From IMG/VR virus record IMGVR_UViG_3300021255_005861, positions 121,667 to 185,666 of that record: a stretch of DNA of 64,000 nucleotides; one strand, 5' to 3'. The notes beneath the pieces are model-generated. The model saw only the letters and a list, made by a program, of their open reading frames with translations, was not told where the DNA came from and searched no databases. The position numbers were made by a program, and so were the translations under genes. Each line of letters opens with the position of its first letter. Position 1 is the stretch's first letter. Below, one piece after another: positions 6,331-54,997 of the stretch. Source of the DNA: a virus. Lineage: Duplodnaviria > Caudoviricetes.

Positions 6331-6977
6331 TGAACTTCCTCCAGATATCGCTCACTACCAAGTGCAACCTGGCCTGCCCAACGTGCCCGATGGCGGCGTA
6401 CCGGAATACGGATAACGCCCCGTTCGTGCTTACTAATGGCAGGCTCCTCCCGTGGATCCGCAAGTACCTCTCCCCACACTCCTGGGTCATCGAACTCACG
6501 GGGGGAGAGCCTGCCCTTTATGACGGCATCTCCGACCTGCTATATGCACTGGACTCGGAAGGTTACAGGGGGCTCGTCAAGACCAACGGCCTGCTCCCCA
6601 TACCCAAGACCGACAACTTCATACGCGTTGCCGCCTTCCACAACCTTGACCGGTTCCCCGTCTACTACGACAAGATACTTATTGTGGACAAGCTGGAACG
6701 CGAGGCCAAGGAGGCGTACTGCAAGGAGCACGGCATAGACTACCGCGTCATCGGGTTCAACAAGGAGAACCCGGACGGAGCGACGCACGGCTTCGACAAG
6801 GTGGCCTACATCGACCCGCACGGACACCAGGTCCCCTGCCCGTCCTGCCCCATCCAGTACGAAAAACAACCCGACCGCTACACGATCGAGTATCAACGGT
6901 TGAAGCCGGGTATGTGCTGCGGGCACTGCAAGGCGGCGATAGACGCATGGCGCTTCCTGCCCGACTCGTGGAATTGA
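6327..6977 (+). CDS. Radical SAM protein
   Basis: CNLACPTC (CxxxCxxC), TGGEP, TNG motifs; extra C-terminal cysteines. Confidence 0.85.
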   Translation: MMNFLQISLTTKCNLACPTCPMAAYRNTDNAPFVLTNGRLLPWIRKYLSPHSWVIELTGGEPALYDGISDLLYALDSEGYRGLVKTNGLLPIPKTDNFIRVAAFHNLDRFPVYYDKILIVDKLEREAKEAYCKEHGIDYRVIGFNKENPDGATHGFDKVAYIDPHGHQVPCPSCPIQYEKQPDRYTIEYQRLKPGMCCGHCKAAIDAWRFLPDSWN

Positions 6978-8330
6978 ACTATCCCCCACGCTAAAGACAT
7001 GCGGGATTCCCTAACTTACACAGAAACATTTCCTGCGATGGTTTCGGGCATTCTCGGTGTAATCCGAGCATTTTTAAGGACTTCGGTAGGTTCCCTTCCT
7101 AATGTCCGTTTGACTCCTAGATACAGAATATTACGTGCAGCGTTCACATCCCTATCGTGCTGTACGTTGCATACGGGGCATACCCACTGATTCACACCTA
7201 ACACGACAGCCGTATTTATATTCCCGCACACGTTACAGGTCTTGCTTGTGTATTGTGCAGGCACCTTTACAAGGTTCGTCTTATAGGACAGGTATTGCCG
7301 AAGCAACCCAAATCCTTGGTCGCCAACAGTCTTACCGTGTTCTAGCTCCGAAGCCATCTTGGATAGATCGATGTCCTCCATGAACACGTATTGGTATTTG
7401 TTGGCTAACTCCCGGCTAACCTTGTGAAGCCAATCCTTACGTTGGTTGGCTACTTTTTCGTATAGCCTCGCCACTTTAAGTCTGGCTTTTTGATATCGGT
7501 GGGATTGTTCGTTCTTTCCATTGACGAACCGGTTGGACTGGATTTGCTGGTATTTCGCTAGCTGCTTTTCCTTACGCTTCAAGAAACGGGGGCACTTGAT
7601 TTTCGTGCCGTCGCTCAAAGTGAGGAAAGAATCGGAGTTGCAGTTCCAATCTATGCCTACGGCTTTTCCATTTTGTATTTTCTTAATATCTTTAGTTTCT
7701 ACACAAATCTTGACATACCATTTTCCACTTGCAGACCGCTTAAAGGTAATGTTCTTCCATCTACCCTTGCAGAACTGCGAAGACGCATGGAGGGGTATAT
7801 AGCCAAGCCTACGAGATATGAACAGCCCTTTTGAATTGATGTGGGCTACATTTCTTTGCAATGCATACCTAAACGATGCCTTGGAGTTCTTTTTGCTCTT
7901 GAAGGTTGGTGGTTGCATAGGCTTTCCCTTGCGGGTACCCTTGAGAGATGCAAAGAAATTCGTATATGCTCCACGGACATCGCTCCATGTTTGTCCAAGT
8001 GGCACGGAATCCACTTCCTTAATCCACTCCAATGCTTCGGGCTTGAACTTCATGAACGTAGGCTTGTAGCCCTCAATAGGCATACTGTGGTCTTTGTTCT
8101 TGTTCTCCACCACCAGGTTGTAATACAGACGACAAAGACCAAGTGTCTTGTTGAAGATAGACACTTGTTCCTTGGTTGGATAGATTCTGTATTCGTAAGC
8201 TTTGTTCATAAGTTTATGTAAACTTTGACTATACTTTAAATATGCATAAGGTTTTTAGAATTTGCAATAGGTTTATTCAAAAATCTGGGCGATTCATTTT
8301 ACAGGCACTAAAAATTTGTGAGTATTCTCG
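6974..8330 (-). mobile_element. IS200/IS605-family (IS1341-like, tnpB-only) element
   Basis: AT-richer segment; subterminal hairpins at ~6983-7010 and ~8290-8330; right end finishes TTCAA on the minus strand; ends approximate. Confidence 0.75.
7016..8209 (-). CDS. tnpB: RNA-guided endonuclease TnpB
   Basis: AYEYRIYPT HTH start, RuvC D/E/D (GIDWN, MEDID, DRDVNAA), CxxC...CxxC zinc ribbon. Confidence 0.95.
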   Translation of the reverse strand: MNKAYEYRIYPTKEQVSIFNKTLGLCRLYYNLVVENKNKDHSMPIEGYKPTFMKFKPEALEWIKEVDSVPLGQTWSDVRGAYTNFFASLKGTRKGKPMQPPTFKSKKNSKASFRYALQRNVAHINSKGLFISRRLGYIPLHASSQFCKGRWKNITFKRSASGKWYVKICVETKDIKKIQNGKAVGIDWNCNSDSFLTLSDGTKIKCPRFLKRKEKQLAKYQQIQSNRFVNGKNEQSHRYQKARLKVARLYEKVANQRKDWLHKVSRELANKYQYVFMEDIDLSKMASELEHGKTVGDQGFGLLRQYLSYKTNLVKVPAQYTSKTCNVCGNINTAVVLGVNQWVCPVCNVQHDRDVNAARNILYLGVKRTLGREPTEVLKNARITPRMPETIAGNVSV

Positions 8331-8513
8331 TTACATTTCTATAACTTCTTTATATTCAATAATAAAGTTCTGATGCCACCACGAGTTAATCGTGAGCGCG
8401 TTGTTGCACTTGCCGTTGAGCCACAGGAAGTACGGGCCCTTGTCGGCGTGTTCCAACCCGTGCGTTGCGGTGAAGCCTATTCTATGTACGTTGCTCAATC
8501 CTAGATTTTTCAT
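8331..8513 (-). CDS. Stand-alone methyltransferase TRD-like mini-protein (cassette Y, 60 aa)
   Basis: MKNLG...GKCNNALTI...NFIIEYKE; ATGA overlap with upstream mini-ORF; same pattern as cassettes at 16889-18170. Confidence 0.6.
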   Translation of the reverse strand: MKNLGLSNVHRIGFTATHGLEHADKGPYFLWLNGKCNNALTINSWWHQNFIIEYKEVIEM

Positions 8514-8671
8514 CGCAAGTCCTTGTACAAAATGACCTTGATCTTGTTTCCGCTGCCCTCGCTGGATTTCAGTGCGTAGCACTTGCCCGCCGGATCCACG
8601 ACGTTCTGCTCAAAGTGCCAACCGTAGGGCGTCATGTCCTTCAGCGGCGTAATGACGTTGCCGCCATTCAT
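8510..8671 (-). CDS. Stand-alone methyltransferase TRD-like mini-protein (cassette X, 53 aa)
   Basis: Manual translation MNGGNVITPLKDMTPYGWHFEQNVVDPAGKCYALKSSEGSGNKIKVILYKDLR; ATGA overlap with the helicase stop. Confidence 0.65.
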   Translation of the reverse strand: MNGGNVITPLKDMTPYGWHFEQNVVDPAGKCYALKSSEGSGNKIKVILYKDLR

Positions 8672-10372: not shown

Positions 10373-12532
10373 CTATCCTTTAGGGACGCGGATTCCCTTC
10401 CTCTCCATTATCTCGGTCAATAGGTCTATATCCGCGGCTTCCTTGCCGTCCACGAGCCCGTCTAGCATCTTGGCACGGTTGTCCAGGATTTCCATAGCCT
10501 CCATGTCGATAGTCCCGTTGGCAACGAGATAGTATGCCGTTACGGGCTTCGTCTGCCCTGAACGAGATAGGCGATCCGTTGCCTGCCGGTGGAAGTTCGG
10601 CGTGTGGGCGAACTCGGCGAAGGCACAGTGGCTGCATACATGCTGAAGTCCGTCGATACCGACACCCCCGCTCTGGATGTTGGCCACGAGCAGGCGGCAG
10701 TCCTCGTCCTTGATGAACATGTCCTTGGCCGTCTCCCTCTCGCTGGCGGTCATTCCCCCGTATATCTTGGCGGGCTTCCACGGTTTCATCTGCGAGCAGA
10801 GCAGATCCACCACGTCACGATGCCACGCAAAGAGCAATAGCTTCTCCCCGGACTGGAGGAAGCAGTCCACCCAGTCCTCCAAAGCCTTCTCTTTGAGCGT
10901 GAAGGCGGTGTGCAGTAGCCCCGCGATGCGGTTCCTCATGCCCGAGAGTTCCGTGCCCCCGCCGAATACGGAGGCCTCCTCCTCGGCATACGCCTTCATG
11001 GCATCGGGATCGGTCTCTAGCGGCACCACCTCTATCGTCTTGGGGGGCAGATCCTTCATCACGTCCTGCTTCGTGCGCCTCAGCATGCAGTTCACGATGG
11101 CGCGGTGGAGCTGGTCGGCGTTGGTCACCCCGTTGAAGGTCATGCCGTACCCGTTGTTCTTCGGGTCGCAGTAGGTGTATAGATACTTGTAGTAGTCGGG
11201 GAATACGTCCGGCATCATTATGTTGAGGCACGGCCAGAACTGGGCGGGGCGGGACATCGCGGGGGTGCCGCTCATCGCTATCACCTCACGTGTAATCTTC
11301 GCCAGGGCCATGAACGCCATCGAGCGTATGGACTTGGGGTTGCCTATCGCCTGCACCTCGTCCCCTACCAGCAACATTAAATTTAGCCTAGTCAGCTGGC
11401 CGTCTGCAATAAATCTCAACTTGCCGTCCTTGGTCTTCTCGGTATGTCCTACCCAGTCGGCAAGGATGTCCCAGTTGATTATGTACGTCTTGTCCGGGGA
11501 CAGCTCGTGTGGGGTCTTGCCGTACAGCACCTCGGGCTTCGGGAACGTCCCCTCCACCTTCGAGAGCCACGCTTCGTATGCGTTCTTCCACTGCAGTTTC
11601 GTCGGGGCGTTGACCACGTAGAGGGCGGGGAAGGACTGGGCGTAGACCATCCACGCGAGCGCCTCCACGGTCTTGCCGCAGTTGTGCACCACGATCCGGT
11701 TCGCCACGAAGTTGGCGTGCTCCAGCACCTTCACGTCGTAGGTCATCCGCATCCCGCAGGGATACACGGAGTCAACCCTCGCGTAGTCCTCCTCCCCGTC
11801 TATGCGAACCCTGCACCCCAAGAGCTTCTCCGCCTCCACGTACCCGTAGTCAGTAAGAACTCGGTGGTCGTGCGTGGCTATCAGGAACTTGCCATTATCC
11901 AGGGTGACGTGTACGCACCCCTTGATGCCGCTCTCTATGACATCTACAATTTCTCCGTATCCGAGAGTGCCGTCGGCGAGGACGCACTTGATTTTCCACT
12001 GTTTGTCCTCGGTGTACTTGCGGTGCAGGGTTTCCAGGGACATCCCTACTACCTTCTCGCCCGTGTCGATATGCACGAGCATGTCGCCCGAGATGCATCC
12101 CATCTCGTCGCCGAGCAGCACCCTTCCGTGCCTTACCTGGCAGAACTTGAGGAAATCCACTTGATACGGGCGCAGGCCGGGGAGCAGCGTAGCCCCCGGT
12201 ATTAGCCCCATCCGGTCTATCTTCGCCCGTTGCTCTTCCAACGGGTCGGGAAGGTCGGCCTTCTCCACGGGGGGATCTGGCGCGGGCCATCCCGACATGA
12301 ACAGCCACTCCCGCGTCTTGTCGTCCCACGGGAGTTCCCACAGCTTGGTCAGCGTGTTGTAGTTGCGGACGGGCAATGCCTTTATGGCGGCGAGAATGAG
12401 TTTCCACGTGTCCCTGTCGGGGCAATTCCACCCTACCTCCACCTTCTCGTTTCCGGGGAGCATACGGGCGGTATACCTGCATCCGGGTACAGGCGATATC
12501 GGGGGCGGGAATCGGGTTTTCTTCGGGTACAT
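10373..12532 (-). CDS. SNF2-family helicase with mini-intein
   Basis: LRPYQ, GDEMG|CGKT Walker A, DEVQ, SGTP, LRRTK, QATDRLSRSGQ. Confidence 0.9.
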   Translation of the reverse strand: MYPKKTRFPPPISPVPGCRYTARMLPGNEKVEVGWNCPDRDTWKLILAAIKALPVRNYNTLTKLWELPWDDKTREWLFMSGWPAPDPPVEKADLPDPLEEQRAKIDRMGLIPGATLLPGLRPYQVDFLKFCQVRHGRVLLGDEMGCISGDMLVHIDTGEKVVGMSLETLHRKYTEDKQWKIKCVLADGTLGYGEIVDVIESGIKGCVHVTLDNGKFLIATHDHRVLTDYGYVEAEKLLGCRVRIDGEEDYARVDSVYPCGMRMTYDVKVLEHANFVANRIVVHNCGKTVEALAWMVYAQSFPALYVVNAPTKLQWKNAYEAWLSKVEGTFPKPEVLYGKTPHELSPDKTYIINWDILADWVGHTEKTKDGKLRFIADGQLTRLNLMLLVGDEVQAIGNPKSIRSMAFMALAKITREVIAMSGTPAMSRPAQFWPCLNIMMPDVFPDYYKYLYTYCDPKNNGYGMTFNGVTNADQLHRAIVNCMLRRTKQDVMKDLPPKTIEVVPLETDPDAMKAYAEEEASVFGGGTELSGMRNRIAGLLHTAFTLKEKALEDWVDCFLQSGEKLLLFAWHRDVVDLLCSQMKPWKPAKIYGGMTASERETAKDMFIKDEDCRLLVANIQSGGVGIDGLQHVCSHCAFAEFAHTPNFHRQATDRLSRSGQTKPVTAYYLVANGTIDMEAMEILDNRAKMLDGLVDGKEAADIDLLTEIMERKGIRVPKG
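11681..12097 (-). mobile_element. Mini-intein (139 aa) in the SNF2 Walker A motif
   Basis: Starts CISGD, block B THDH, ends VVHN followed by Cys; no endonuclease. Confidence 0.9.
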
Positions 12533-12534
12533 AA

Positions 12535-13392
12535 TTAGACTATAGCAGGTTCTAGCATCTTATGCGGTTCTACTACGGGAAGTTCTAATATTTCTTCGCC
12601 GATTTTAACATAATTCACGTCTAGTTTACGGGTTTTCAGTATTTCTACAGCCTTTTCCAAAGATTCCTTCCACGCAGGGAAAAGTTCTCCAAGTCCGAAT
12701 TCCATATAGAGTTCATCAAGGTCCATAACTACACCGATAGCCCAGTTTACATCTGCTTCCGTGAAATCTTCGTGTAGTGCCTTATCCCGGAATTTGTCAT
12801 ATCGGGGATTCATTGAAACAATACGGTCATATTCTTCTTTGGATTTAAACCCGAAGATGCATTTTTCCACGAGGTCCTTGTTTTCCCCTAGTTCTCGCAA
12901 GTAATGAAAACCATCATCATTCAATCCTATAATTTTTGTACCTAATAGTTCTTTTGCGATGATATTAGGTATAGGATAACCGCCATATTTCTTAAAGTAA
13001 TGCTCGATGATACCGCTAACTTCCGCCCAGTACCACTTGTCGAAATTGGCAATATCGTGTTTTACGATTTCAATAACGCCCTCACGATACTGCGGATTAC
13101 TACGGATTCCCGTAATACCGGTCATCTTCTTACCCGGCAACCGGCCTTCATAGATAGCAAGGGCCGCACGTTCTCCATCCGTCAAGGCGAACCTTACTTC
13201 GGATAAGTTCTTCAGAAGCGTAGAGTCTTTGGAGGGTCCTACCCAACCATCAAGACTAGATGCCTTGTATCCTTCATCTAAAGTCTTTCTAATATACCCG
13301 ATTAACGGAGCAATCTCATCCTTTTCTGTAATGAACTGCAACTGGATGTTATTCTCGTTAATATGCTCATTAACTTTTATTTTTAGCGACAT
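12535..13392 (-). CDS. Hypothetical protein (AT-rich)
   Basis: 285 aa ORF with lower GC than neighbours. Confidence 0.65.
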   Translation of the reverse strand: MSLKIKVNEHINENNIQLQFITEKDEIAPLIGYIRKTLDEGYKASSLDGWVGPSKDSTLLKNLSEVRFALTDGERAALAIYEGRLPGKKMTGITGIRSNPQYREGVIEIVKHDIANFDKWYWAEVSGIIEHYFKKYGGYPIPNIIAKELLGTKIIGLNDDGFHYLRELGENKDLVEKCIFGFKSKEEYDRIVSMNPRYDKFRDKALHEDFTEADVNWAIGVVMDLDELYMEFGLGELFPAWKESLEKAVEILKTRKLDVNYVKIGEEILELPVVEPHKMLEPAIV

Positions 13393-13558
13393 AGTTATGT
13401 TTCCTTTGAAAAATGCCCCAAAAACACGTTAAGTAGGAGATCGTATTTTCGGGGCATTTAAATTCTTTAGCCATCCAACTCCTACATAGGACAGCATATT
13501 TCCAAGTATAAATATAATATATATTCCGCAGAAAAACAACAATGTAAGAAGAAAATAA

Positions 13559-13580
13559 GATTTTGCCATCCTGCTATATC
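13559..13580 (+). promoter_or_regulatory. Promoter-like motif TTTTGCC-N5-GCTATA
   Basis: GATTTTGCCATCCTGCTATATC just before ATG 13589. Confidence 0.7.
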
Positions 13581-13588
13581 ATTTCCCG

Positions 13589-14629
13589 ATGCCCCACAAC
13601 CTAGAGAAATTGACATACGGCATATCCGAGCTGCTCGACACGCTCGGCCTCAAGGGCTCGGTAGTTACCGTGTCAAGGGACGTGCTCGAGGTGCGCCTGT
13701 CCAAGGACGACGCCTTCGGCAGCGCCTTCCCGCTCAAGGAGCGCCCGCAGGTGCGACTCCACGCCGAGCCCATACTGCCCGACCGCAAGCCGAAGAAGAA
13801 GGAAGAGAAGCCCCCCGAGCAGGGGTTCTTCAAGGTGGCCTCCACCGACCCGATGAACTCGTGCGGCCTCGACGAGGAACAGCGCGAGGCGCTCTACGCC
13901 CTAGTGAACGGCAAGTACCCGTTCCTCTCCAAGACCAAGACGGACTCCCGGACGTGGGAGTGCACGTGCAGGGAGATAGTGTGGATAGCCGAGGGGCTGT
14001 TCTGGAAGTCGCACCGCTGGGATCCGGCGTGGCTCGGGCGCATGACCAAGAAGGGTGTTGGCCCGCAACTCATGTCCGGGCTGGCCACGGGGGCGCACGC
14101 CGTCATCCGCGCCCTCGCCGACAGCCTCGACGCCGTGGTGGAGCGGAACAAGGAGGGCTTCTGGTGGCCGTCCGTCGAGAAGGGCAGGCAGAAGAGGGAG
14201 CCCCTGCTCAGCTTCCTCGTGTCCCGCACCCGCAAGGGTACGGAGTGGAGCCCCTTCTGCGAGATATTCTGGGAGCGGAACAAGGCCGAGTCCATATCGT
14301 CCGGCCTGCCCGAGCGTGTGGTGGCCGTGGCGCACCGCATCATGGACGAGTCCCCGTGGCTCTCCTCGCTCCCGAAGCACTCCCAGGATTCCTACTGGGA
14401 CGGGGTGCGCAAGTACTACGAGTGGTACATGGCTGAGCGGGATACGCTTATGCGGAACACGAGGAACAGGGCCAAGTTGTCCGACTCGGGATCGGCCATA
14501 GATCTCGTGTACCAGTGGGACTCCGAGAATGGCCACAGGAAGGTGTCGGCGCGGTTCGTTCACCCCGGAGTAGACCTATGGGGGCCGTTCAAGGCCTGGT
14601 GCAAGGACACGAGAGGCATAACTTTGTAA
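13589..14629 (+). CDS. Hypothetical protein
   Basis: 346 aa, phage codon usage, follows the promoter motif. Confidence 0.7.
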   Translation: MPHNLEKLTYGISELLDTLGLKGSVVTVSRDVLEVRLSKDDAFGSAFPLKERPQVRLHAEPILPDRKPKKKEEKPPEQGFFKVASTDPMNSCGLDEEQREALYALVNGKYPFLSKTKTDSRTWECTCREIVWIAEGLFWKSHRWDPAWLGRMTKKGVGPQLMSGLATGAHAVIRALADSLDAVVERNKEGFWWPSVEKGRQKREPLLSFLVSRTRKGTEWSPFCEIFWERNKAESISSGLPERVVAVAHRIMDESPWLSSLPKHSQDSYWDGVRKYYEWYMAERDTLMRNTRNRAKLSDSGSAIDLVYQWDSENGHRKVSARFVHPGVDLWGPFKAWCKDTRGITL

Positions 14630-14642
14630 ATTTGGTAGCCAC

Positions 14643-15017
14643 ATGGAAAAGAAAAGAAAGACTGCAGGCCCGAGGCATCCGGGCAAGGACAAGTACCCGG
14701 TGCATCACGAGGCCGAGACTATAACCATTCCACGCGCCGAATACGACGCGATGGTGGAGGAACTGCGGGACAGGCGCATGCGTGCCAACCGCAGGTGGAT
14801 ATCCACCGATACGAGGCTCCCGGATCCCGAGGAGTACGTAATCGTGTACGGGTCGGACTGGTGGAATGGTGGCAGTTACGCGATGCTGAAGGTAATGAAG
14901 GAACGTGGCCCGTTCGGTGAGATTCAGTGGTCGGACGGGAACGGTCCCGTGTCCGTTGAGGACATCTCGTACTGGACGCATTTTCCCGCAGCCCCGCGAG
15001 GTAGAGATGGAAATTAA
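14643..15017 (+). CDS. DUF551-like phage protein
   Basis: WISTDTRLP...YWTHFP pattern. Confidence 0.55.
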   Translation: MEKKRKTAGPRHPGKDKYPVHHEAETITIPRAEYDAMVEELRDRRMRANRRWISTDTRLPDPEEYVIVYGSDWWNGGSYAMLKVMKERGPFGEIQWSDGNGPVSVEDISYWTHFPAAPRGRDGN

Positions 15018-15732
15018 GGGAAAGGTACACTGCTTATTCGAACAATCTGGGGTATTCAAGAACCAGTTCAAGGAACTCGGGTACGAGGCTTTCGACTACG
15101 ACATCCAAAACCACTTCCACGAGACCGACCACGTGGTGGATCTGTTCAAGGCGATAGAGGACGCCTACGACGGGAAGCCGAGCCTCTTCGACGACATCAC
15201 GCCCGACGACCTCATCATGGCGTTCTTCCCTTGCATCTACTTCTCGTGCATGAGCCAGATGCTCATAAGTTACACGCACCGCAACTACACGAATTACTCG
15301 CCAAAGGAGCGCTTCGACGCCATCCTCCAGCGTTCGGCGAACCGCGAGCTGTTCTTCTCCCGCGCCGTTAAGATGCTGGCCGTGGCGAAGATCCGGGGCC
15401 TTAGGATAATCATGGAGAACCCGTGGAGCGAGCAGACGTTTCTCAAGCAGAACTTCCCGTTCAACCCCAGCGTCGTGGACATGAACCGGACGCTCCGCGG
15501 CGACTACTACGTGAAGCCTACCGCCTACTGGTTCATCAACTGCGAGCCAACGAACGGGCAGACGCTACAGCCACGGAAGCCGGGGAAGAATATCTGCCAG
15601 GTAGCCCCCAACGGGATGCCCGGAATCTGTAACGAGGAACGCAGCCTCATACACCCGGACTACGCCCGCAACTTCATCTGCGACTTCGTGCTCGGGAAAC
15701 GGCAGGAATTTGGGCAACTCTCGCTCTTCTAA
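15007..15732 (+). CDS. Compact C5-cytosine methyltransferase-like protein
   Basis: CLFEQSG (motif I-like), FFPC (IV), MENP (VI), KPT (VIII-like); ends QLSLF. Confidence 0.65.
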   Translation: MEIKGKVHCLFEQSGVFKNQFKELGYEAFDYDIQNHFHETDHVVDLFKAIEDAYDGKPSLFDDITPDDLIMAFFPCIYFSCMSQMLISYTHRNYTNYSPKERFDAILQRSANRELFFSRAVKMLAVAKIRGLRIIMENPWSEQTFLKQNFPFNPSVVDMNRTLRGDYYVKPTAYWFINCEPTNGQTLQPRKPGKNICQVAPNGMPGICNEERSLIHPDYARNFICDFVLGKRQEFGQLSLF

Positions 15733-15736
15733 CGGG

Positions 15737-15758
15737 TTTTGCCCCTACGCTATATTGG
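15737..15758 (+). promoter_or_regulatory. Promoter-like motif TTTTGCC-N5-GCTATA
   Basis: TTTTGCCCCTACGCTATATTGG upstream of the split methyltransferase. Confidence 0.7.
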
Positions 15759-15786
15759 TAAAAACTCTCGCTAAAAGGAATATTTT

Positions 15787-16896
15787 ATGGGAATACGAGT
15801 ATTGAGCCTTTTCGACGGCATGGGTTGCGGCAGGATAGCCCTGGAGGAACTCGGAGTCAAGGTGGACACGTACTACGCGTCGGAGGTAGACAAGAACGCC
15901 ATCGCAATGGAAACTCTAAACTTCCCGGACACGGTCTGCCTCGGCGACGTGACTAAGGTGGACGCCCGCAAGCTCGGGCACATCGACCTGCTTATCGGCG
16001 GGTCGCCGTGCTTCACTAAGGGACACAAGGTACTTACCGAGAACGGGGAGAAGAACATCGAGGACATCGTGCTCGGCGACAGGGTGTTGACACACACGGG
16101 TTCGTATATGCCCGTAATCGATGTAGGAAGCAAGTTCTCGGACGACCTTTACGAGATGGTTCTCGCTGACGGGACTACGTATCACGTGACAGGAAACCAT
16201 CCGTTCTATGCTACTACCGATGGGAAGGTTTTTTCCTGGGTGGCCTGTTCGGAACTTACCCCGGAACATGGGATACTGAAGGTAGACCGAGTCACGGTCA
16301 CGCAGTTCAAGGGCAGGGATAGGATACCGGGCGATACCGTGTACAACATGACTGTGGACGTGGACCACAGCTACTCGGTTAATAATTACTTTGTACATAA
16401 TTGCACGAACTTCAGTTTCGCCGGTCGCCGCAACGGCATGAATACTACCACGAACGAAGAAATATACTCGCTCGATCGCTATCTTGAACTCAAGCGCGAT
16501 GGCTTCCAGTTTGACGGCGAGTCCTACCTGTTCTGGGAGTACATGCGCATCCTCGGGGAACTCCGCGAGACTAACCCGGACGTGTTCTTCTTTTTGGAGA
16601 ACGTTGAGATGGGTGAGAAGTGGGAATCCGTGCTGACGAAGGCGATCGGTATTCCCGGCGTGCACGTCAATTCCGCCCTCGTGTCCGCGCAGAACCGCCG
16701 TCGCATCTATTGGACTAATATCCGTACGAAGAATGGGGGACTGCTCGGGTTCGGGTGGCAGGTACCCGACATCCCGCAGCCCGAGGACAAGGGCATCATG
16801 CTCTCGGACGTGCTCGACGACGTAGTGGACAGGAAGTACTATCTCAAGGACGAGGTGGTGGACAAGCTGCTCGCCAACGGGGTGAAGGGTGCGTAA
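15787..16896 (+). CDS. Split C5-cytosine methyltransferase, N-terminal catalytic part (motifs I-VIII), intein-containing
   Basis: LFDGMG (I), GGSP|C (IV), LENV (VI), QNRRRIYW (VIII); ends before TRD and motifs IX/X. Confidence 0.9.
   Translation: MGIRVLSLFDGMGCGRIALEELGVKVDTYYASEVDKNAIAMETLNFPDTVCLGDVTKVDARKLGHIDLLIGGSPCFTKGHKVLTENGEKNIEDIVLGDRVLTHTGSYMPVIDVGSKFSDDLYEMVLADGTTYHVTGNHPFYATTDGKVFSWVACSELTPEHGILKVDRVTVTQFKGRDRIPGDTVYNMTVDVDHSYSVNNYFVHNCTNFSFAGRRNGMNTTTNEEIYSLDRYLELKRDGFQFDGESYLFWEYMRILGELRETNPDVFFFLENVEMGEKWESVLTKAIGIPGVHVNSALVSAQNRRRIYWTNIRTKNGGLLGFGWQVPDIPQPEDKGIMLSDVLDDVVDRKYYLKDEVVDKLLANGVKGA
16009..16401 (+). mobile_element. Mini-intein (131 aa) in the catalytic PC motif
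   Basis: CFTKG...TGNHPF...VHN followed by the catalytic Cys. Confidence 0.9.
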
Positions 16897-17080
16897 CAAG
16901 GCCTTATGTATGCCCTGCCTGCGCTACGGTGTGGTGGTACCCGAGTCGCAGAAAGTTCCTTGTCTTATATCTACGTACCAGCAGGACAGGTTCTACGACC
17001 CCGCGGGCGGGTTGCTCCCTGCGCTGGCTAAAAACCTTGAAGGATTTTTGATTTTGGTCTATGAAGAAAGTGCTCGTTAA
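16889..17080 (+). CDS. TRD-like mini-protein, cassette A (63 aa)
   Basis: KVPCL...YQQDRFYDPAG...FLILVYEE; GTG start overlaps the catalytic gene end. Confidence 0.65.
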   Translation: MRNKALCMPCLRYGVVVPESQKVPCLISTYQQDRFYDPAGGLLPALAKNLEGFLILVYEESAR

Positions 17081-17222
17081 TCCGCTCTTCAACCACCCGG
17101 TACACGGATGGCTCACGCTGTTGCAGGCCGAGGATAAGTCGTTCTGCCTGTGCGCCAAGTACGCGCATCAGCCACGGTTCGACATCAAGACGTACATTAT
17201 GGATTATGAGGATGTGGCATGA
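17061..17222 (+). CDS. TRD-like mini-protein, cassette B (53 aa)
   Basis: Manual translation MKKVLVNPLF...DKSFCLCAKY...TYIMDYEDVA. Confidence 0.65.
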   Translation: MKKVLVNPLFNHPVHGWLTLLQAEDKSFCLCAKYAHQPRFDIKTYIMDYEDVA

Positions 17223-17410
17223 TTAGGTGCACGTGGAAACAGCAACGCAGCGAGTTCGGGAAGCTCCACCGGCACGAATACGAAAACCTGCACTCGCGGG
17301 AATACGGCGGTAGGCAGGCCATGAAGGAAAAGGCGCTCGTGTTCGACAAGTGCGGACCGCTTACGCTCGCCCTCGGCGACAACGTCATCTTGGAACTGGA
17401 CGAGGTGTAG
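17219..17410 (+). CDS. TRD-like mini-protein, cassette C (63 aa)
   Basis: RSEFGKLHRHEYE...KCGPLTL...DNVILE; ATGA overlap, GAGG RBS. Confidence 0.7.
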   Translation: MIRCTWKQQRSEFGKLHRHEYENLHSREYGGRQAMKEKALVFDKCGPLTLALGDNVILELDEV

Positions 17411-17412
17411 CC

Positions 17413-17601
17413 ATGTCCGTTAATGTTTTGCGCATCCGAAGAAGCGACTACGGGAAAGAGCACCGCAAGGCGTACGAGTACGGGCATTCCCGCGAATACG
17501 GCGGGATGCAGTCCATGGTGGAACGCTATCCTAGTACCGACGGCAAGAGCGGCCCGCTAACGACCGTGCTCAAGGACAACTTAGTGATCCATTATGAGTA
17601 G
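17413..17601 (+). CDS. TRD-like mini-protein, cassette D (62 aa)
   Basis: RSDYGKEHRKAYE...DGKSGPLTTVLKDNLVIHYE; paralog of cassette C; GAGG RBS. Confidence 0.7.
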   Translation: MSVNVLRIRRSDYGKEHRKAYEYGHSREYGGMQSMVERYPSTDGKSGPLTTVLKDNLVIHYE

Positions 17602-17614
17602 TGCTCGTATATGA

Positions 17615-17634
17615 TTTTGCCCACCCGCTATAAT
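17615..17634 (+). promoter_or_regulatory. Internal promoter-like motif within the cassette array
   Basis: TTTTGCCCACCCGCTATAAT. Confidence 0.65.
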
Positions 17635-17641
17635 GTACGAT

Positions 17642-17802
17642 ATGGATAAGATGCCGGTTCTAGTTGGATACAAGTGTGGAGTGACCCCCCCCCATGCAAC
17701 GGGAAGGCGCCTACACTCACGACGGAACTGGCGCACCGGACGAACTCGTACGGCCTGCCCCACGTTTTGATATTTGAGATATTTAATGGAAAAGAACCTT
17801 AG
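17642..17802 (+). pseudogene. TRD-like cassette E, frameshifted at a C9 tract (candidate phase-variable, OFF)
   Basis: MDKMPVLVGYKCGVT-[C9 17685-17693]; second frame PCNGKAPTLTTELAH...PHVLIFEI; C7 or C10 restores frame. Confidence 0.65.
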
Positions 17803-17834
17803 AAACCCCCCCCCTCCCCCGGAAAGGAAGGTAC

Positions 17835-18008
17835 ATGAAGACTAGCATGCATTTCAGCAAGAGTTACTTCGGCGTGGACACTTGCACGGATCCTGCGTCA
17901 TCAAAAAGTTGCTGTCTTACGAGCGGGGACTACCCTACGGTACATGCGGGTGGAGTTGAAGGGTTCTGCAAAAGGACATACTTGTTGGACATTGAGGTAC
18001 TTGAATGA
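17835..18008 (+). CDS. TRD-like mini-protein, cassette G (57 aa)
   Basis: Manual translation MKTSMHF...SKSCCLTSG...TYLLDIEVLE; preceded by C9-T-C5 tract and GGAAGG. Confidence 0.6.
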   Translation: MKTSMHFSKSYFGVDTCTDPASSKSCCLTSGDYPTVHAGGVEGFCKRTYLLDIEVLE

Positions 18009-18170
18009 GGGTCGCATGTAATCCTACATGGAAGAATGGAATACTCATACCCCCCCCAGAGGAGGAACAAGAGTACTTGCATACAGGCGTTCCTGTGCAA
18101 GTGGTTCGTGCCAAGTAAGACTCATGACCTGACGTTCGTGATGGACTATGAAATTTTAGAAAAGGAATAA
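18005..18170 (+). pseudogene. TRD-like cassette H, frameshifted at a C8 tract (candidate phase-variable, OFF)
   Basis: MRVACNPTWKNGILI-[C8 18050-18057]; second frame QRRNKSTCIQAFLCK...TFVMDYEILEKE; C7 or C10 restores frame. Confidence 0.65.
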
Positions 18171-18173
18171 CCG

Positions 18174-18983
18174 ATGGCATTTTTCGACATGGAAGAGATA
18201 AAGCCCAAGGAGGAACCGTCCTCCGACGGGAGAATTATAACTCTCAACGGCAAGAAGGTGCACGTCCTCGGTATCCGCAGGCTCACTCCCGCCGAGTGCG
18301 CCCGCCTGCAGACCATACCCACGTGGTACGCATGGTACGGCAACTACGCGGATGAACTCGTGGACGGGGTGTCCACGAAGGGGTATAACGTGGCCCTCGG
18401 GCTGCTCTCGTCGGACGTCGTCACCAAGAACGTGTCCGAGGTGCTCTCCGTCATCCCCGTGGTGGAATCCTCGTGCACGCAGGTCAAGGCGGAGAAGCTC
18501 TCCGTGTCCTTCGATACGGACATCCCGGATTCTAGCGCCCGCTCGGTGTTGTTCGTCAAGGGCAAGGACGAGACGTCGCTCCCCGCCGGGTTTACCCGTG
18601 AGGTGGACATGGGAGGGTATCAAGTGTCGGTTATGCCTTCCGGCGTGCTGTCGGGCAGGTTGCCGGAGTCTACCGACGAGGTGGGTTTCATCAAGGTGCT
18701 CAAGGGCTTGCACGACGAGAGCCCCGTTACGGCGGTGTCGTACTTGATAGCGTGGTCTCTGTGCCGCGGTATCCTCGCCACGATGCACGGGGTGTCCCTC
18801 CGCGTGGACGGGACATGCACGGTCGCGGCAGGCAGGCTGACGTGGGAACTAACGTCGCTCCGGATTGGGCAGGTCAAGCAGATAAGCGACTCCAGCATAT
18901 ACAAGGCTCTCGGCAACGGGTGGACGGTGGATGTCGTCAAGCACTTCTTCTCGTTCCTCCCGAAGGAATGGCGTGCGGCGTGA
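18174..18983 (+). CDS. Split C5-cytosine methyltransferase, C-terminal part (motifs IX-X) with ~180 aa insertion
   Basis: IRRLTPAECARLQTIP (IX) and YKALGNGWTVDVV (X); own RBS and ATG. Confidence 0.85.
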   Translation: MAFFDMEEIKPKEEPSSDGRIITLNGKKVHVLGIRRLTPAECARLQTIPTWYAWYGNYADELVDGVSTKGYNVALGLLSSDVVTKNVSEVLSVIPVVESSCTQVKAEKLSVSFDTDIPDSSARSVLFVKGKDETSLPAGFTREVDMGGYQVSVMPSGVLSGRLPESTDEVGFIKVLKGLHDESPVTAVSYLIAWSLCRGILATMHGVSLRVDGTCTVAAGRLTWELTSLRIGQVKQISDSSIYKALGNGWTVDVVKHFFSFLPKEWRAA

Positions 18984-19649
18984 AGGACTGGACGGGAAAT
19001 CGCAACAGCACGGTAGCGCTACTAGGTAGCACCCGCGACACGGAAAACGTGCGTGAGGACAACGACTTCTACGCCACGCACCCGCTTGCTACGGAACTGT
19101 TGCTTGAACTGGAGGAGCTCTCGCACGATGTGTGGGAACCCTGCTGCGGGCAGGGTCATATCGGGAAGGTACTCGCGGCACGGGGCTTCAACGTGAAGGC
19201 TACAGATCTTGTCTACCGCGGATATGGTAGGGGGGGGGGAGGACTTCCTGCAGTGCACTACCCCGTTCGACGGGGATATCGTCACGAACCCCCCGTACAT
19301 GTACGCCCCAGAGTGCGTCATCAAGGCATTGGAGCTCATCCCCGAAGGCCGCAAGGTCTGCATGTTCCTCAAGCTGCAGTTCCTGGAAGGACTTTCCCAC
19401 TATGAACTTTTCAAGGCATACCCGCCACGGACTATTTACGTGGCCGTACGCCGCATGCAGTGCAGCAAGGGCGGGAAGTTCCTCGACGCCTCCATGGTGT
19501 GCTATTGCTGGTTTGTATGGATTAAGGGGTTTAAAGGTACACCCGAATTGAAATGGTTCAACTACGAGGCCCGCGAGACCGCATATCCCGAACTGCTGCA
19601 CATCGCCAACCCCGAAGATACTCCAGGCACATACCCGAAGTTCTTCTAG
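18980..19649 (+). pseudogene. Adenine (amino) DNA methyltransferase, frameshifted at a G10 tract
   Basis: DFYATHP, WEPCCGQG in one frame, TNPPY in another; G10 at 19230-19239; G9 gives GYGRGGEDFL. Confidence 0.8.
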
Positions 19650-19696
19650 GGGGGTCTGCTATATTATATTCAACACCTGCATAAAGGAAAAAAACT

Positions 19697-20770
19697 ATGA
19701 TTACTATCGAACACGAAAAACTCCTCTCCGCCCTCAAGAAGGTGCTCCCCGGCGTTGATGCCGGCACTACCGTCGTTACGGGCGCAACCCAGGTACTCTT
19801 TACCGGCAAGGCCGTCTGCTCCTACAACGGCACGACCTCCGTCACTACCCCGCTGGATATGCAGGAACTCGCCTTCTCCGTCAAGGGGATGGACCTGTAC
19901 AACCTGCTCTCCAAGTTCAACGAGCAGTCCGTGGAACTGGATGTCGCGGGAAATAAGCTGAAACTCAAGTCAGGCCGCACCCGCGCCTCCCTCACTACGC
20001 TGGACGGGACTACCCTGCAGGCCAACGTGGACGCCCTTGCCCTGGGCGACGTGGAGTTCAAGCCGCTCCCGGACACCTTCATTACGGGTCTTGCCATGTG
20101 CAAGTTCAACAACCCGAAGAAGGAACTGGATGGCATGGCCGTGGGTCCGTACAAGGACGCCTCCGCCATCTTCGCCACCGACACGAACCGCATCTGCATC
20201 TACGAACTCCCGGAAAAGATGGACGACTTTTGGATCGGCAGTTCCGCTATCGGGACTATTACCAAGCTCGGCACGCCGAAGGAATACTGCGTATCCGGTG
20301 CATGGCTCCACGTCAAGTACGACGATGGCACGGTTCTCTCCGTTACCCGCGTCAGCGGCACCAAGTTCCCGTACCCCGTTCCGCAGTGCACCGCCAACAT
20401 GGACGCGGCGCTCAAGTCCGAGCCCATCCTCGAGGGCACGCTCCCCGAGAACATCAAGGACGTTGTCGCCCGCGTGTCCGTGCTCGCGTCCTGCGTGAAC
20501 AACACGTCCAACATCATCAAGATGTCGTTCAGCGCCGAGGGTATCGAACTATACGCCGAGAACAACGACGGCTCCGCCACGGAATCCGTGTCCTGGGGTA
20601 CCGCTCCCGAGGGAGAGTTCCAGCCGACGGACATCTGGGTGGACAAGGCCTTCCTCCTCGAGGCCACGAACACGCTCATCCGCTTCAGCCTGTCCCGCGT
20701 GGGCAACATGACGGTAATGCTGTTCCGTACCGAGGGCTACAGCCAGCTCGTTGCCACGATGCAACGCTAA
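19697..20770 (+). CDS. DNA polymerase sliding clamp (beta/DnaN-like)
   Basis: 357 aa, directly upstream of the polymerase; ATDTNRI (cf. ATDGHRL), KFPYP. Confidence 0.7.
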   Translation: MITIEHEKLLSALKKVLPGVDAGTTVVTGATQVLFTGKAVCSYNGTTSVTTPLDMQELAFSVKGMDLYNLLSKFNEQSVELDVAGNKLKLKSGRTRASLTTLDGTTLQANVDALALGDVEFKPLPDTFITGLAMCKFNNPKKELDGMAVGPYKDASAIFATDTNRICIYELPEKMDDFWIGSSAIGTITKLGTPKEYCVSGAWLHVKYDDGTVLSVTRVSGTKFPYPVPQCTANMDAALKSEPILEGTLPENIKDVVARVSVLASCVNNTSNIIKMSFSAEGIELYAENNDGSATESVSWGTAPEGEFQPTDIWVDKAFLLEATNTLIRFSLSRVGNMTVMLFRTEGYSQLVATMQR

Positions 20771-20794
20771 CTATTTGGTGCATAAAATACCTCA

Positions 20795-20825
20795 CACGGG
20801 CGGAGGATATCCGCCCGTGCTTTTT
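20795..20825 (+). terminator. Rho-independent terminator
   Basis: CACGGGCGGA/TCCGCCCGTG stem plus T-run. Confidence 0.65.
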
Positions 20826-20843
20826 CAACCTCACAGGATTTTC

Positions 20844-23516
20844 ATGGGTTTCTTCAATATTCAGCCGGAAATGGTAGCGCCCCCGAAGAAGGGTGGATGC
20901 GACGCGTGCAATATGGACAGGAGCGGGGTAGACGCCCCGTTCGTGGGCGACGGCAGGGACGGGGTGCTTATTCTCTCCGACCTTCCCGCCAAGTACGAGG
21001 AAAACGGCGAGGACAAGCTGTTCACGGCGAGGCACTACGACTACCTGTGGAAACTGCAGGGCAAGAGGGGGCTTCCCGAATATTTCCTTGAGAAGGCGTG
21101 GCTCGGGTACGTCATCCCGTGCCACAAGGGAAACAAGGAGCCGGTGTACTCGTGCTGTTCGGCCCGTCTTGAAAGGCTCATCAGCGAACTGAAGCCGAAG
21201 GTCATCATCCCGATGGGTCCGATAGCGGTACAGGCGCTCATTTGGAACAGGATGGCGGGGCGAATCACGAACACGCTCCCGTCGCACCTCTACGGCAAGC
21301 AGATCCCCGACCGCTACTACAACTGCTGGATATGCCCCACGTACGGGACGGAGTTCCTCTCGTGGCAGCGGGACGACCGGTGCCCCTACGACTACTTCGC
21401 CCAGCATATCCGCGCCGCGTGGAAACTTATCAACGTACCGCTTCCCAAAATTCCCACCGATATCCGAGTGACGGGCGATCCGAAGGAGGCCGCCAAGTGG
21501 ATAGACGAGATAGTCGAGTGGGGGGAGGCAGATATCCTGGACAAGTCCCCCGAGGGGTATCACGACGTGGCGATAGACTACGAGACCACGGGGCTCAAGC
21601 CCCACCGCGACGGGCACGCCATCAAGGCCGCCTCGGTCGGGTACCGCAAGGACGGGGAGTACCATGCGATAGGCTTCCGATGGTACGGCGACTGCAAGGA
21701 ACTCGTGGACGCTTGGTACAAACTGACGCACCACGACAAGATAGGCCTCGTGGCGCACAAGGCGGACTTCGAGGCGTGCTGGACCCGCTTCCGCGCCGGC
21801 CTTAACGACGGGCGCACGGACTGGCCCACGAACTGGTCATGGGACACCTGCCTCGGGGCGCACGTCATCGACAACAACCAAAAAACCGGGCTCAAGCTCC
21901 ACACGTACTGCGAACTCGGAGTGCTCGGGTACGATACCGAGGTGGACTCGTTCCTGTCCACGATGATGACGGGCGAGGACAAGTCAAGCTGCAACGCCTT
22001 CAACCTGCTCAAGGAGCCCGTTGGCGTCCCGTGGAACGAACTCGTCTACTACTGCGGGCAGGACTCGCTGTACACCATATTTATCCGCGACAGGCAGTCC
22101 GCCCAGATGGTCGGGCTCGAGAAGCCGTTCCGCTTCTTCATGGGCGGTATGGACGCCCTCGCGAAGGTGCAGTCCGAGGGGCTGCCGATAGACTTTACCA
22201 AGATAGGGGCGCTCCAGGCCGAACTCGACGAGAAGTTCAAGGAGGCCGAGAAGGAGGCGCTATGCACTGAGGAGGCGAAGAAGTGGATGGAGGCGCACCC
22301 CGGAGAACTCTTCAACCCGCTCTCCAACAAGCAGGTCGTGGAGGTTCTCTACGGGCTATGCAAGATGAAGCCCCCTTCCGGCAAGGAGGACGCCACGGGC
22401 GACACGCTGGAGAAACTCGGGACTCCTCTCTGCAAGGCCATTCTCGGCATGCGCAGGTGGTCCAAGATAAAGGACTTCCTCAAGGGATACGAGCGCGAGG
22501 CCGTGTACGACGAGGAGAAGAAGTCCTACCTCATCCGACCTTTCTTCAACCTGTCCACGGGCGCGGGAGGGGAGAACAACGCGGGACCGCGTACCTATCG
22601 TTCGTCCGCCGACAGCCCGAACTTCCAGAACATCCCGAAGCGCGACAAGGAGATGAAGAAACTGCTCCGTTCCCTATTCGTAGCCCCCAAGGGATACCGC
22701 TTCATGGAGATGGACTACAAGAGCCTCGAGGTCATGGTGTCCGCAAGTTACCACCACGACCCGCAGATGATTCACTACCTGCAGAACCCCGAGTCCGATA
22801 TGCACCGCGACACCGCCTGCGACATGTACATCCGCAAGCAGGACGAGCTGACGAAGGAGGAGCGCTCCTCAATCAAGTCCGGTTACGTGTTCAGTTCCTT
22901 CTACGGGGCATCCTACAAGTCCTGCGCCCTCAATATGTGGAACAACATGCCAAAGTACACGAAGGAGCATCTCGCCAACGACTGCGGCATCAAGACCTAC
23001 GACCAGTGGGAGGAGCACGTCAAGAAGGGCGACGACATCTTCTGGAACCAGCGCTTCAAGGTGTACAACGGTTGGCGCGAGAAGGAATGGGAGCGCTACC
23101 AAAAATATGGCTATGTGCAGTCCTATACGGGATTCCGCTGCTGGGGTCCGATGGGGTATACGGAAGCCACTAACCGGTGTATCCAGGGGAGTGCGTTCCA
23201 CATCCTGCTCAAGGCATTGCAATATGACCTACGGGACATCAAGGAGCAGGGGCTTCAGTCCGTCATTATAGGCCAGATCCACGACGCCATCATCGCTCTC
23301 GTCAAGGAGGGCGAGGAGGATGCGCTGGCCCGCATCGTCTACCGCAACGGCGTGGAGCGCGTGAGCAAGGAGTTCCCGTGGATATGCGTCCCGCTCGTAA
23401 TCGAGGCCGACGCCTCCGACGTGGACGGCTCGTGGGCGAAGATGACCGAGGTCGGGGCGCTGGGACCGGACGGCATCGCGGACCGGGACTGGATAAAGAG
23501 ATACGAGGCGCACTGA
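20844..23516 (+). CDS. Family A DNA polymerase with N-terminal UDG-like domain and 3'-5' exonuclease
   Basis: DYETTG exonuclease I, PNFQNIP, DYKSLE (motif A), R...K...FYG (B), IHD (C); N-terminal Cys-rich UDG4-like region. Confidence 0.9.
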   Translation: MGFFNIQPEMVAPPKKGGCDACNMDRSGVDAPFVGDGRDGVLILSDLPAKYEENGEDKLFTARHYDYLWKLQGKRGLPEYFLEKAWLGYVIPCHKGNKEPVYSCCSARLERLISELKPKVIIPMGPIAVQALIWNRMAGRITNTLPSHLYGKQIPDRYYNCWICPTYGTEFLSWQRDDRCPYDYFAQHIRAAWKLINVPLPKIPTDIRVTGDPKEAAKWIDEIVEWGEADILDKSPEGYHDVAIDYETTGLKPHRDGHAIKAASVGYRKDGEYHAIGFRWYGDCKELVDAWYKLTHHDKIGLVAHKADFEACWTRFRAGLNDGRTDWPTNWSWDTCLGAHVIDNNQKTGLKLHTYCELGVLGYDTEVDSFLSTMMTGEDKSSCNAFNLLKEPVGVPWNELVYYCGQDSLYTIFIRDRQSAQMVGLEKPFRFFMGGMDALAKVQSEGLPIDFTKIGALQAELDEKFKEAEKEALCTEEAKKWMEAHPGELFNPLSNKQVVEVLYGLCKMKPPSGKEDATGDTLEKLGTPLCKAILGMRRWSKIKDFLKGYEREAVYDEEKKSYLIRPFFNLSTGAGGENNAGPRTYRSSADSPNFQNIPKRDKEMKKLLRSLFVAPKGYRFMEMDYKSLEVMVSASYHHDPQMIHYLQNPESDMHRDTACDMYIRKQDELTKEERSSIKSGYVFSSFYGASYKSCALNMWNNMPKYTKEHLANDCGIKTYDQWEEHVKKGDDIFWNQRFKVYNGWREKEWERYQKYGYVQSYTGFRCWGPMGYTEATNRCIQGSAFHILLKALQYDLRDIKEQGLQSVIIGQIHDAIIALVKEGEEDALARIVYRNGVERVSKEFPWICVPLVIEADASDVDGSWAKMTEVGALGPDGIADRDWIKRYEAH

Positions 23517-52197: not shown

Positions 52198-52270
52198 CCC
52201 GTAAGCAAAAAATAATATCGCCCTCCGTGAGAAATAAGTTATATTTATACGCGGAGGTTTTTTTTTGTAT

Positions 52271-54713: not shown

Positions 54714-54997
54714 CGGAGTTATTGATATTCTGCGCCTCGGTGGTGCTCGTTATAGTGGGGACGGCGGTCCTGGTGACACTCACGGAGGATAAAAAATAGT
54801 TTTTCCGTAAGTTTTCCGTAAAATATATGTATATTTAGGTACATGAGAAACTACGGGAAAGCATATACGGAACATTGCGGCTCTAGCGGGCTACTTTCTC
54901 CGTGCCCCCCCCCTACGTTAAATTTTATTTACATTTCAGTATGCTCGCCCGAGCGGATTGATGTCCGTCCGGGTATTTCTGCATATACGGAGGATCT

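Follow-up and report, generated by a model that had tools for sequence, protein, structure and literature searches.

In a 64,000-nucleotide (nt) stretch of viral DNA (hereafter the window), which is the final 64 kb of the 185.7 kb IMG/VR record IMGVR_UViG_3300021255_005861, a C5 DNA methyltransferase was found to be divided between two genes, with an array of small open reading frames (ORFs) resembling target recognition domains (TRDs) lying between them. This locus probably encodes a three-component multispecific C5 methyltransferase, in which TRD micro-proteins plug into a core made of the two other proteins. The reading builds on the architecture of the locus, its conservation, the purifying selection acting on it, the homology of the small ORFs to in-frame TRDs of other enzymes, the turnover of these ORFs and the polymorphism of homopolymer tracts, all of which were observed in the window and its relatives. 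The two enzyme genes are called N and C below, and the TRD-like mini-ORFs are called cassettes.

The original prediction, which was made from the letters of this DNA, held that motifs I-VIII and motifs IX-X are encoded by separate genes, and this was confirmed by Pfam, by the motifs themselves and by the different reading frames of the N and C genes, which are 1277 nt apart. Motif I is present in the N gene (LFDGMGCG, residues 8-15; Pfam profile positions 1-71 matched), and the PF00145 match spans motifs I-IV, with ENV and QNRRR further on. Motifs VI (LENVEM) and VIII (AQNRRR) were invariant across 35 relatives, and the gene is 78-85% identical to the N genes of the related contigs L001, L002, L004 and L028. 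The N gene stops 12 amino acids (aa) past the conserved YYLKDE helix, and the TRD is absent from it. Motifs IX (RRLTPAECARLQ) and X (ALGNGWTV) are both located in the C gene, and the hairpin RII.LNGKKV.VLG lying 5' of motif IX is conserved only in the clade with split enzymes. Between motifs IX and X, the C gene of the window also contains an insertion of ~180 aa (about 18336-18884), which is absent in L001, L002, L004 and L028 (the split-clade loci readable there) and is found in 11 database proteins of the same length with 66-93% identity. This insertion had zero matches in Pfam and PHROGs, an AlphaFold2 predicted local distance difference test score (pLDDT) of 37, and structural atlas leads that were all below threshold (<0.9; template modelling score, TM, <0.5).

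The N gene is interrupted by a mini-intein. Its insertion point is immediately 5' of the catalytic Cys of motif IV, which is the +1 residue, and as encoded the motif reads GGSP, intein, CTNFSFAG. The features of a class 1 intein are present, including Cys1 (CFTKGH...), a block B TGNH and the terminal HN (...FVHN) followed by the +1 Cys. The spliced motif IV is predicted to be GGSPCTNFSFAG, comparable to GGSPCQSFSFAG in intein-free relatives, and the motif IV Cys is predicted to double as the +1 splice nucleophile. At the same site, inteins were absent in L002, L004 and L028, and inteins of 335-348 aa were present in L001, L005 and L030; the latter would be large enough to hold a homing endonuclease.

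The gap between the N and C genes is occupied by seven TRD-like cassettes, A, B, C, D, E, G and H (Table 1). It had been proposed that all seven are ORFs of 53-63 aa. This holds for A, B, C, D and G, which are intact as sequenced (five of the seven, 53-63 aa), and fails for E and H, which are frameshifted at poly-C tracts. The proposed overlapping of starts with stops was verified, as cassette starts overlap or abut the previous stop: B starts at -19 nt, C and H start in ATGA overlaps, D starts at +3 and the C gene at +4. Since homologues were found for six of the seven cassettes, with the proportion of nonsynonymous differences (pN) well under that of synonymous differences (pS), the pattern of the array is far beyond chance. 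Cassette A showed a ratio of nonsynonymous to synonymous substitution rates (dN/dS) of 0.06 and a pN/pS of 0.22, and cassette C is 77% identical to a cassette of L005 with a pN/pS of 0.14. For cassette B, zero homologues were found at E<1e-4 among six related contigs. The E-type cassette is out of frame at C9 in L028, and in frame and free of the tract in L001 and L002. Searches of single cassettes against Pfam and PHROGs returned zero matches; those families do not model isolated TRDs.

A core of the form K-x-x-x-L (the TL element) and a terminal hydrophobic strand followed by an acidic residue had been named as the features shared by the cassettes. They are real and recur in ~60 cassettes of the related contigs. 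However, they are inherent also to in-frame TRDs of the same superfamily, so that the strand plus Glu is a general end motif of TRDs and not specific to free cassettes. The core of cassette A had been assigned to KVPCL, but the equivalent of TL in A is probably the PAL element that follows YQQDR.

Table 1 Features of the split methyltransferase locus and of related loci in the window
Feature	Position	Strand	Evidence or remark
IS605-family TnpB	7016..8209	-	Pfam OrfB_IS605, Cas12f1-like_TNB
Remote cassette, 60 aa, GFTATHG...ALTINSWWHQNF type	8331..8513	-	directly 5' of TnpB
Remote cassette, 53 aa, PYGWHF type	8510..8671	-	ATGA-coupled to the stop of a DnaB-like helicase gene
Third DNA methyltransferase of the island (phrog_757)	15007..15732	+	PHROGs
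N gene, C5 DNA methyltransferase, motifs I, IV, VI and VIII	15787..16896	+	Pfam PF00145, E 2e-22
Mini-intein, 131 aa	16009..16401	+	Pfam Hint_2, Hom_end_hint, PT-HINT
Cassette A, YQQDR...PAL type TRD, chimeric N-terminal half	16889 (GTG) or 16910 (ATG)..17080	+	homologues in L001, L002, L005
Cassette B, 53 aa	17061..17222	+	ATG within YEE codons of A
Cassette C, 63 aa, paralogue of D-type TRD	17219..17410	+	ATGA overlap with B
Cassette D, 62 aa, D-type TRD (RSEYGK...DGKSGPLTTVLKDN)	17413..17601	+	intact ORF
Cassette E, NKAPTLTTE type	17633/17642..17802	+	two-frame split at C9 (17685-17693); in frame if C10 or C7
C9-T-C5 tract	17806..17820	+	between E stop and G start
Cassette G, 57 aa, KSCCLTSGDYP type	17835..18008	+	pN/pS 0.24-0.34 vs L001, L002
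Cassette H	18005..18170	+	two-frame split at C8 (18050-18057); in frame if C7 or C10; L005 homologue
C gene, basic hairpin (RIITLNGKKVHVLG) + motif IX + ~180 aa insertion + motif X	18174..18983	+	Pfam, alignment
Amino-methyltransferase (phrog_799, NPPY)	18980..19649	+	frameshift at G10 (19230-19239); G9 restores frame

When viral contigs were searched with the post-intein part of N, 538 relatives were obtained, and the N, intein and C pieces were mapped onto the best 80 of these. In the majority of the mapped relatives (59-73% identical), the enzyme is a single ORF with a variable region of 150-950 nt, which holds one to six tandem in-frame TRDs that match the cassettes of the window in sequence type. 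Because the same TRD types occur in frame in these distant relatives, the cassettes are bona fide TRDs, and the comparison with intact enzymes suggested along with the original prediction thus found the mini-ORFs to be homologous to in-frame TRDs of multispecific relatives. In the closest relatives, L001, L002, L004, L005 and L028 (the split clade; N 70-85% identical), the N and C genes are in different frames with a gap of 741-4250 nt, which contains from ~5 to 17 cassettes. Greedy ORF tiling misassigned frames in the GC-rich window, L005 and L028, where long out-of-frame ORFs exist, and a reading by homology was used there instead. The gaps of L002 and L004 are tiled almost completely by ATG-started ORFs of 55-72 aa, which amount to 16 and 5 cassettes, respectively, and L002 has one extra cassette with an apparent TTG start. 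About 16 cassettes were counted in L001, whose array is broken by an IS605-type TnpB.

The junctions between cassettes follow a uniform pattern. The ATG-started cassette ORFs of L001, L002 and L004 are 52-72 aa long, and the next ATG is typically located 13-35 nt 5' of the prior stop, inside GAATATGAAGAA, which encodes ...EYEE in the outgoing frame and MKK in the incoming one. Every junction has a stop and a change of frame, a pattern that is conserved in six contigs. Between consecutive cassettes the frame shifts either way, and in the incoming frame a stop lies just 5' of each ATG. If the locus were a decaying gene, the relatives should carry one continuous ORF with stops at random positions; what they carry is the layout of N, array and C with ordered start-stop junctions. 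A TRD is contained in neither N nor C of the window, L001, L002 and L004, and N and C are still conserved; in all four, N ends ~12 residues beyond the YYLKDE helix. In L028 and in the L047/L055 group, one to three TRDs are fused to N or C, and these loci look like intermediates. Between the near-identical contigs L050 and L055 (~6530-6550), a difference of one G in a G run shifts the stop of N and detaches the fused TRD in L050.

About a dozen cassette types, which are common to several phages and shuffled in order, were obtained from an all-against-all comparison. Across 26 orthologous cassette pairs, pS was 0.6-1.0 (saturated or nearly so) and pN was 0.08-0.41, with pN/pS or dN/dS of 0.05-0.54; control pairs of the N catalytic domain (n=4) gave a pN/pS of 0.05-0.26, similar to the cassettes. 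As pN is low at saturated pS, neutral decay since the divergence of the split clade is excluded, and the cassettes, for which a neutral dN/dS had been named as a sign of decay, are under purifying selection. Free-standing D-type homologues are diverse in public data. A D-type profile matched 442 cluster representatives among 1.84 billion proteins, most of which are long methyltransferases with the TRD embedded. Among the best 150 matches, ~25 are complete proteins of 63-96 aa in which the TRD covers the full length and ends in a short acidic stretch, and eight free-standing homologues of cassette D with 57-69 aa were found in a protein database. In the contig L082, overlapping mini-ORFs form an independent array, 3' of which lies a C part of a different C5 subfamily. 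In L084 (positions 3-752), a lone D-type mini-ORF (68 aa) is located 150 nt 3' of what looks like a complete C5 methyltransferase from another subfamily, a hint that intact enzymes, too, may gain specificities from detached TRDs. A 1235 aa repeat protein (P0017), which had 11 matched stretches in the library search, was rejected as a false positive.

Variation was also seen among co-occurring strains, for which assembled contigs of the same study, and not reads, were compared. The contig from the source run (depth 131) is identical to the window. In the strains of runs X2 and X4, cassettes G and H are absent, and the end of E runs directly into the beginning of the C gene. A 258 nt deletion over G and H is present in one contig of a related strain, and in one contig cassette C is swapped for 369 other letters. 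These strain differences involve whole cassettes and lie at cassette borders. The expectation that the number and order of cassettes would vary in related phages was therefore met down to the level of strains. The homopolymer tracts vary as well: the tract at 17685 is C8 in one related strain versus C9 in the window, and the tract at 19230 is G9 in the X2 and X4 contigs and in one X3 contig, with both G9 and G10 present in X3. Cassette turnover and tract polymorphism are thus real at the strain level. Four of the five C or G runs of at least 8 in the 64 kb window fall inside a methylation island (15007-19649), and those at 17685, 18050 and 19230 are the positions of frame breaks, located inside reading frames as in contingency loci. 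Three cassettes of L028 carry poly-C tracts, one of them in frame and two out of frame. The tracts may be switched as a regulated process.

The only homologues of the module outside the array in the 185.7 kb genome are two intact remote cassettes located 8 kb away. The PYGWHF-type cassette is 76% identical to an L002 cassette with a pN/pS of 0.15, and the GFTATHG-type cassette has homologues in L001, L002 and L028 with a pN/pS of 0.13-0.18. That cassettes are kept intact apart from the enzyme genes is as expected for trans-acting factors. Moreover, a TnpB with 82% identity to that of the window (L001:8042-9280) follows the same cassette type within the L001 array. The presence of TnpB next to the GFTATHG-type cassette at both sites suggests either mobility linked to an insertion sequence (IS) or a common insertion target, and cassettes may thus have moved in association with IS elements.

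Modelling of the complex, which had been proposed as a check, put the cassette at the position between N and C that a TRD takes in an intact enzyme. The three chains modelled were the N and C proteins of L004, which have no intein and no insertion, and a D-type cassette, with one alignment per chain. The score was 0.89, and the best of three controls reached 0.08; in the calibration of the method, the mark of 0.89 was reached by 58 of 80 solved complexes and by 2 of 110 mismatched pairs. The runs agreed in at least 82% of contacts, and the pLDDT of the partners was at least 73. The modelled contacts join TRD residues 55-63 (the terminal strand) to C residues 26-36, TRD residues 43-47 (the TL loop) to motif VIII, and TRD residues 1-6 to N residues 228-234. 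The modelled topology is that of an intact C5 methyltransferase; the pieces are predicted to fit that fold, and binding as such is not implied.

A mechanism can be proposed on this basis. The N protein, after splicing out of the intein, would provide the S-adenosylmethionine (AdoMet) and catalytic domain with motifs I-VIII, and the C protein would provide motifs IX-X and the short basic hairpin. Each cassette would be translated separately as a TRD protein of 52-72 aa, and initiation would mostly be coupled to termination of the preceding ORF, because the ATG lies from a few to ~30 nt before, or just after, the preceding stop. A single TRD at a time would dock between N and C. Its N-terminal strand would lie along the C-terminal segment of N and its TL loop beside motif VIII, whereas the hairpin that precedes motif IX would be contacted by the terminal hydrophobic strand and acidic tail of the TRD. 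The docked TRD would rebuild the small domain and set the sequence to be methylated, and the cassettes together would specify a broad anti-restriction methylome by which host restriction would be evaded.

Detachment of the TRDs would be a small evolutionary step from an in-frame multispecific enzyme. In such enzymes all TRDs but the last are separated from motif IX by other TRDs, so non-covalent docking should be needed there as well. Detachment would allow TRDs to be inserted, deleted and moved without regard to frame, and a frameshift in one cassette would spare motifs IX-X. As autonomous cistrons, cassettes could therefore be gained, lost, moved (also with IS elements) and switched by poly-C tracts with motifs IX-X unharmed. 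A further gain would be that single specificities could be gated by poly-C, as may be the case for E, H and the three L028 cassettes. A fuller version of this proposal states that a TRD-less two-piece core accepts any of a dozen or more TRD micro-proteins of 55-70 aa via two conserved docking strands, that these are switched by poly-C and traded between phages partly by IS elements, that the result is an anti-restriction methylome which is programmable and, although inherited, variable, and that, given L082 and L084, this is a general and overlooked design. We consider the chances of this fuller version to be evenly balanced.

Several points weigh against the three-component enzyme. As sequenced, neither E nor H is in frame; B is without a homologue in the relatives examined, and A is chimeric. 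The N protein would require intein splicing for activity, and the C protein carries the unexplained 180 aa insertion, each of which leaves the activity of this copy not assured. The purifying selection could partly date from in-frame donor genes before transfer, and the fusion of TRDs in L028, L047 and L055 may mean that fusion is required for some types. The good score of the model may reflect likeness to solved single-chain C5 methyltransferases, and its alignments differ from the calibration set of the tool. Translation of the cassettes, their assembly in trans and methylation are steps that we infer.

Other explanations of the array were weighed against the same evidence. The cassettes could be translated and have another role, as competitive inhibitors or decoys that act on methyltransferases or restriction enzymes of the host, or as sources of additional specificities for another, intact methyltransferase. 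This would suit the lone mini-ORF beside an intact enzyme in L084 and the presence of an additional C5-like gene in the genome (12236-13555). However, N and C would be useless without a TRD, the array lies exactly at the position of the TRD, and in the docking model the cassette fits the N and C proteins of its own phage; we regard such a role as unlikely. It could also be proposed that the mini-ORFs are a silent archive, an untranslated DNA store of TRDs, one of which would be copied by recombination into an in-frame site that is expressed, as happens when pilin or hsdS genes are shuffled. The junction sequence is uniform and could offer microhomology for recombination, the cassette content varies by strain, and the fused TRDs of L028, L047 and L055 would agree with such a store. 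But the window, L001, L002 and L004 are without an expression site in cis, since their N and C genes are TRD-free, and every cassette has its own start and stop with coupling overlaps, although start codons would be superfluous for a mere archive. In addition, the remote cassettes are coupled to a helicase gene, and neither a recombinase nor inverted repeats were noted at the locus. An archive is therefore judged to be somewhat less likely still.

Recoding was considered next, in which ribosomal frameshifting, bypassing or read-through would yield a single multispecific polypeptide made of N, the cassettes and C. A shared frame with single stops in between is seen for G, H and the C gene, and the homopolymers could aid slippage. 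Nevertheless, the frame changes are bidirectional and the incoming frame is stopped 2-4 codons before each ATG, so serial frameshifting is not credible; up to 17 successive events would be needed, and an Rfam scan of 13000-21000 on both strands (E up to 0.1) detected zero introns, frameshift elements or other RNA families. Recoding is thus very improbable. Finally, the array could be a decaying multispecific pseudogene or the product of frameshift errors in assembly. Homopolymers are classic sites of sequencing error, and E, H and the neighbouring amino-methyltransferase are all frameshifted at homopolymers. Yet pN/pS is far under 1, six independent assemblies have kept the ordered arrangement of starts and stops at the junctions, the deeply covered contig of the source run agrees with the window, and most junctions are free of homopolymers, which leaves decay or error with hardly any credibility. 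The three-component methyltransferase is accordingly the explanation that we prefer.

As to the genomic setting, the record was classed as a provirus, and its nearest relatives are phage contigs of 215 kb. The public runs containing the sequence are gut metagenomes, of bovine origin wherever a host is stated, and no RNA data set was listed among them. The methylation island consists of the phrog_757 methyltransferase, the split C5 methyltransferase and the phrog_799 amino-methyltransferase. The C5-like region at 12236-13555 of the genome, which is outside the window, is matched by the L001 N ORF (intein included) with 27% identity over 465 aa. Elsewhere in the window, a C9 tract (54905-54913) lies ~85 nt 5' of a gene of 874 aa (54998-57622) and may be a further contingency tract; the gene has a possible tail-fibre or GDSL-like C-terminal region, as judged by eye only. 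A T9 run is located at 52258 of the window.

C5 methyltransferases are described in textbooks as single-chain enzymes, and to our knowledge multispecificity is known only in the form of several TRDs in one polypeptide. If the proposal is true, a natural C5 enzyme takes its DNA-reading domain as a separate subunit of 60 aa, which would show how a multispecific enzyme offers alternative TRDs to one active site and would account for a class of unannotated phage micro-ORFs. Cassette inventories could then be used to predict phage methylomes and host-range barriers, the logic of contingency loci would be extended to phages at the level of single specificities, and a ready plug-in scaffold for methyltransferases of designed specificity would be available. 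In full-text literature searches, within the scope of one library, no description of free-standing C5 TRD genes was found.

Several known systems share parts of this design. Only two natural two-subunit C5 enzymes, M.AquI and M.EcoHK31I, are cited (PMC3404938). M.AquI is split in the variable region, and a subunit with motifs I-VIII and one with motifs IX-X reassemble (PMC3404938). The variable region of M.AquI is halved between the two subunits, and the enzyme has one specificity and lacks an exchangeable TRD as a third subunit, whereas at the locus described here the variable region is not shared between two subunits and the TRDs would be third polypeptides. In M.EcoHK31I, a small separate beta polypeptide is required for C5 methylation (PMC3404938); this subunit contains motif IX and not the TRD, and the enzyme has a single specificity and no array. 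Laboratory fragment complementation of M.BspRI, M.HhaI and M.SssI has demonstrated that these enzymes tolerate being broken in the variable region and that their fragments come together in vivo (PMC3404938), but these are artificial two-fragment systems in which the TRD stays on one fragment. HsdS subunits of type I restriction-modification systems and phase-variable methyltransferases (phasevarions) place specificity on an exchangeable subunit, which is switched by repeat tracts or shuffling (PMC12707154, PMC7672463). The logic of a separate and switchable specificity is the same, but they belong to the unrelated amino-methyltransferase class, and a whole mod or hsdS gene is switched instead of C5 micro-cassettes. 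There is also a likeness in layout with M.SPRI, M.phi3TI, M.rho11sI and M.H2I of Bacillus temperate phages, which are anti-restriction enzymes with one core and several short, contiguous and independent TRDs between motifs VIII and IX (PMC12707154, which cites Trautner et al. 1996). In-frame relatives of the present gene in gut phage contigs hold 2-6 such TRDs. The present locus likewise has several tandem TRDs between these motifs, seven here and up to ~17 in L002. In the Bacillus phage enzymes, however, core and TRDs form one polypeptide, whereas here they do not, the TRDs being separate cistrons in arrays of up to ~17 between separate N and C genes.

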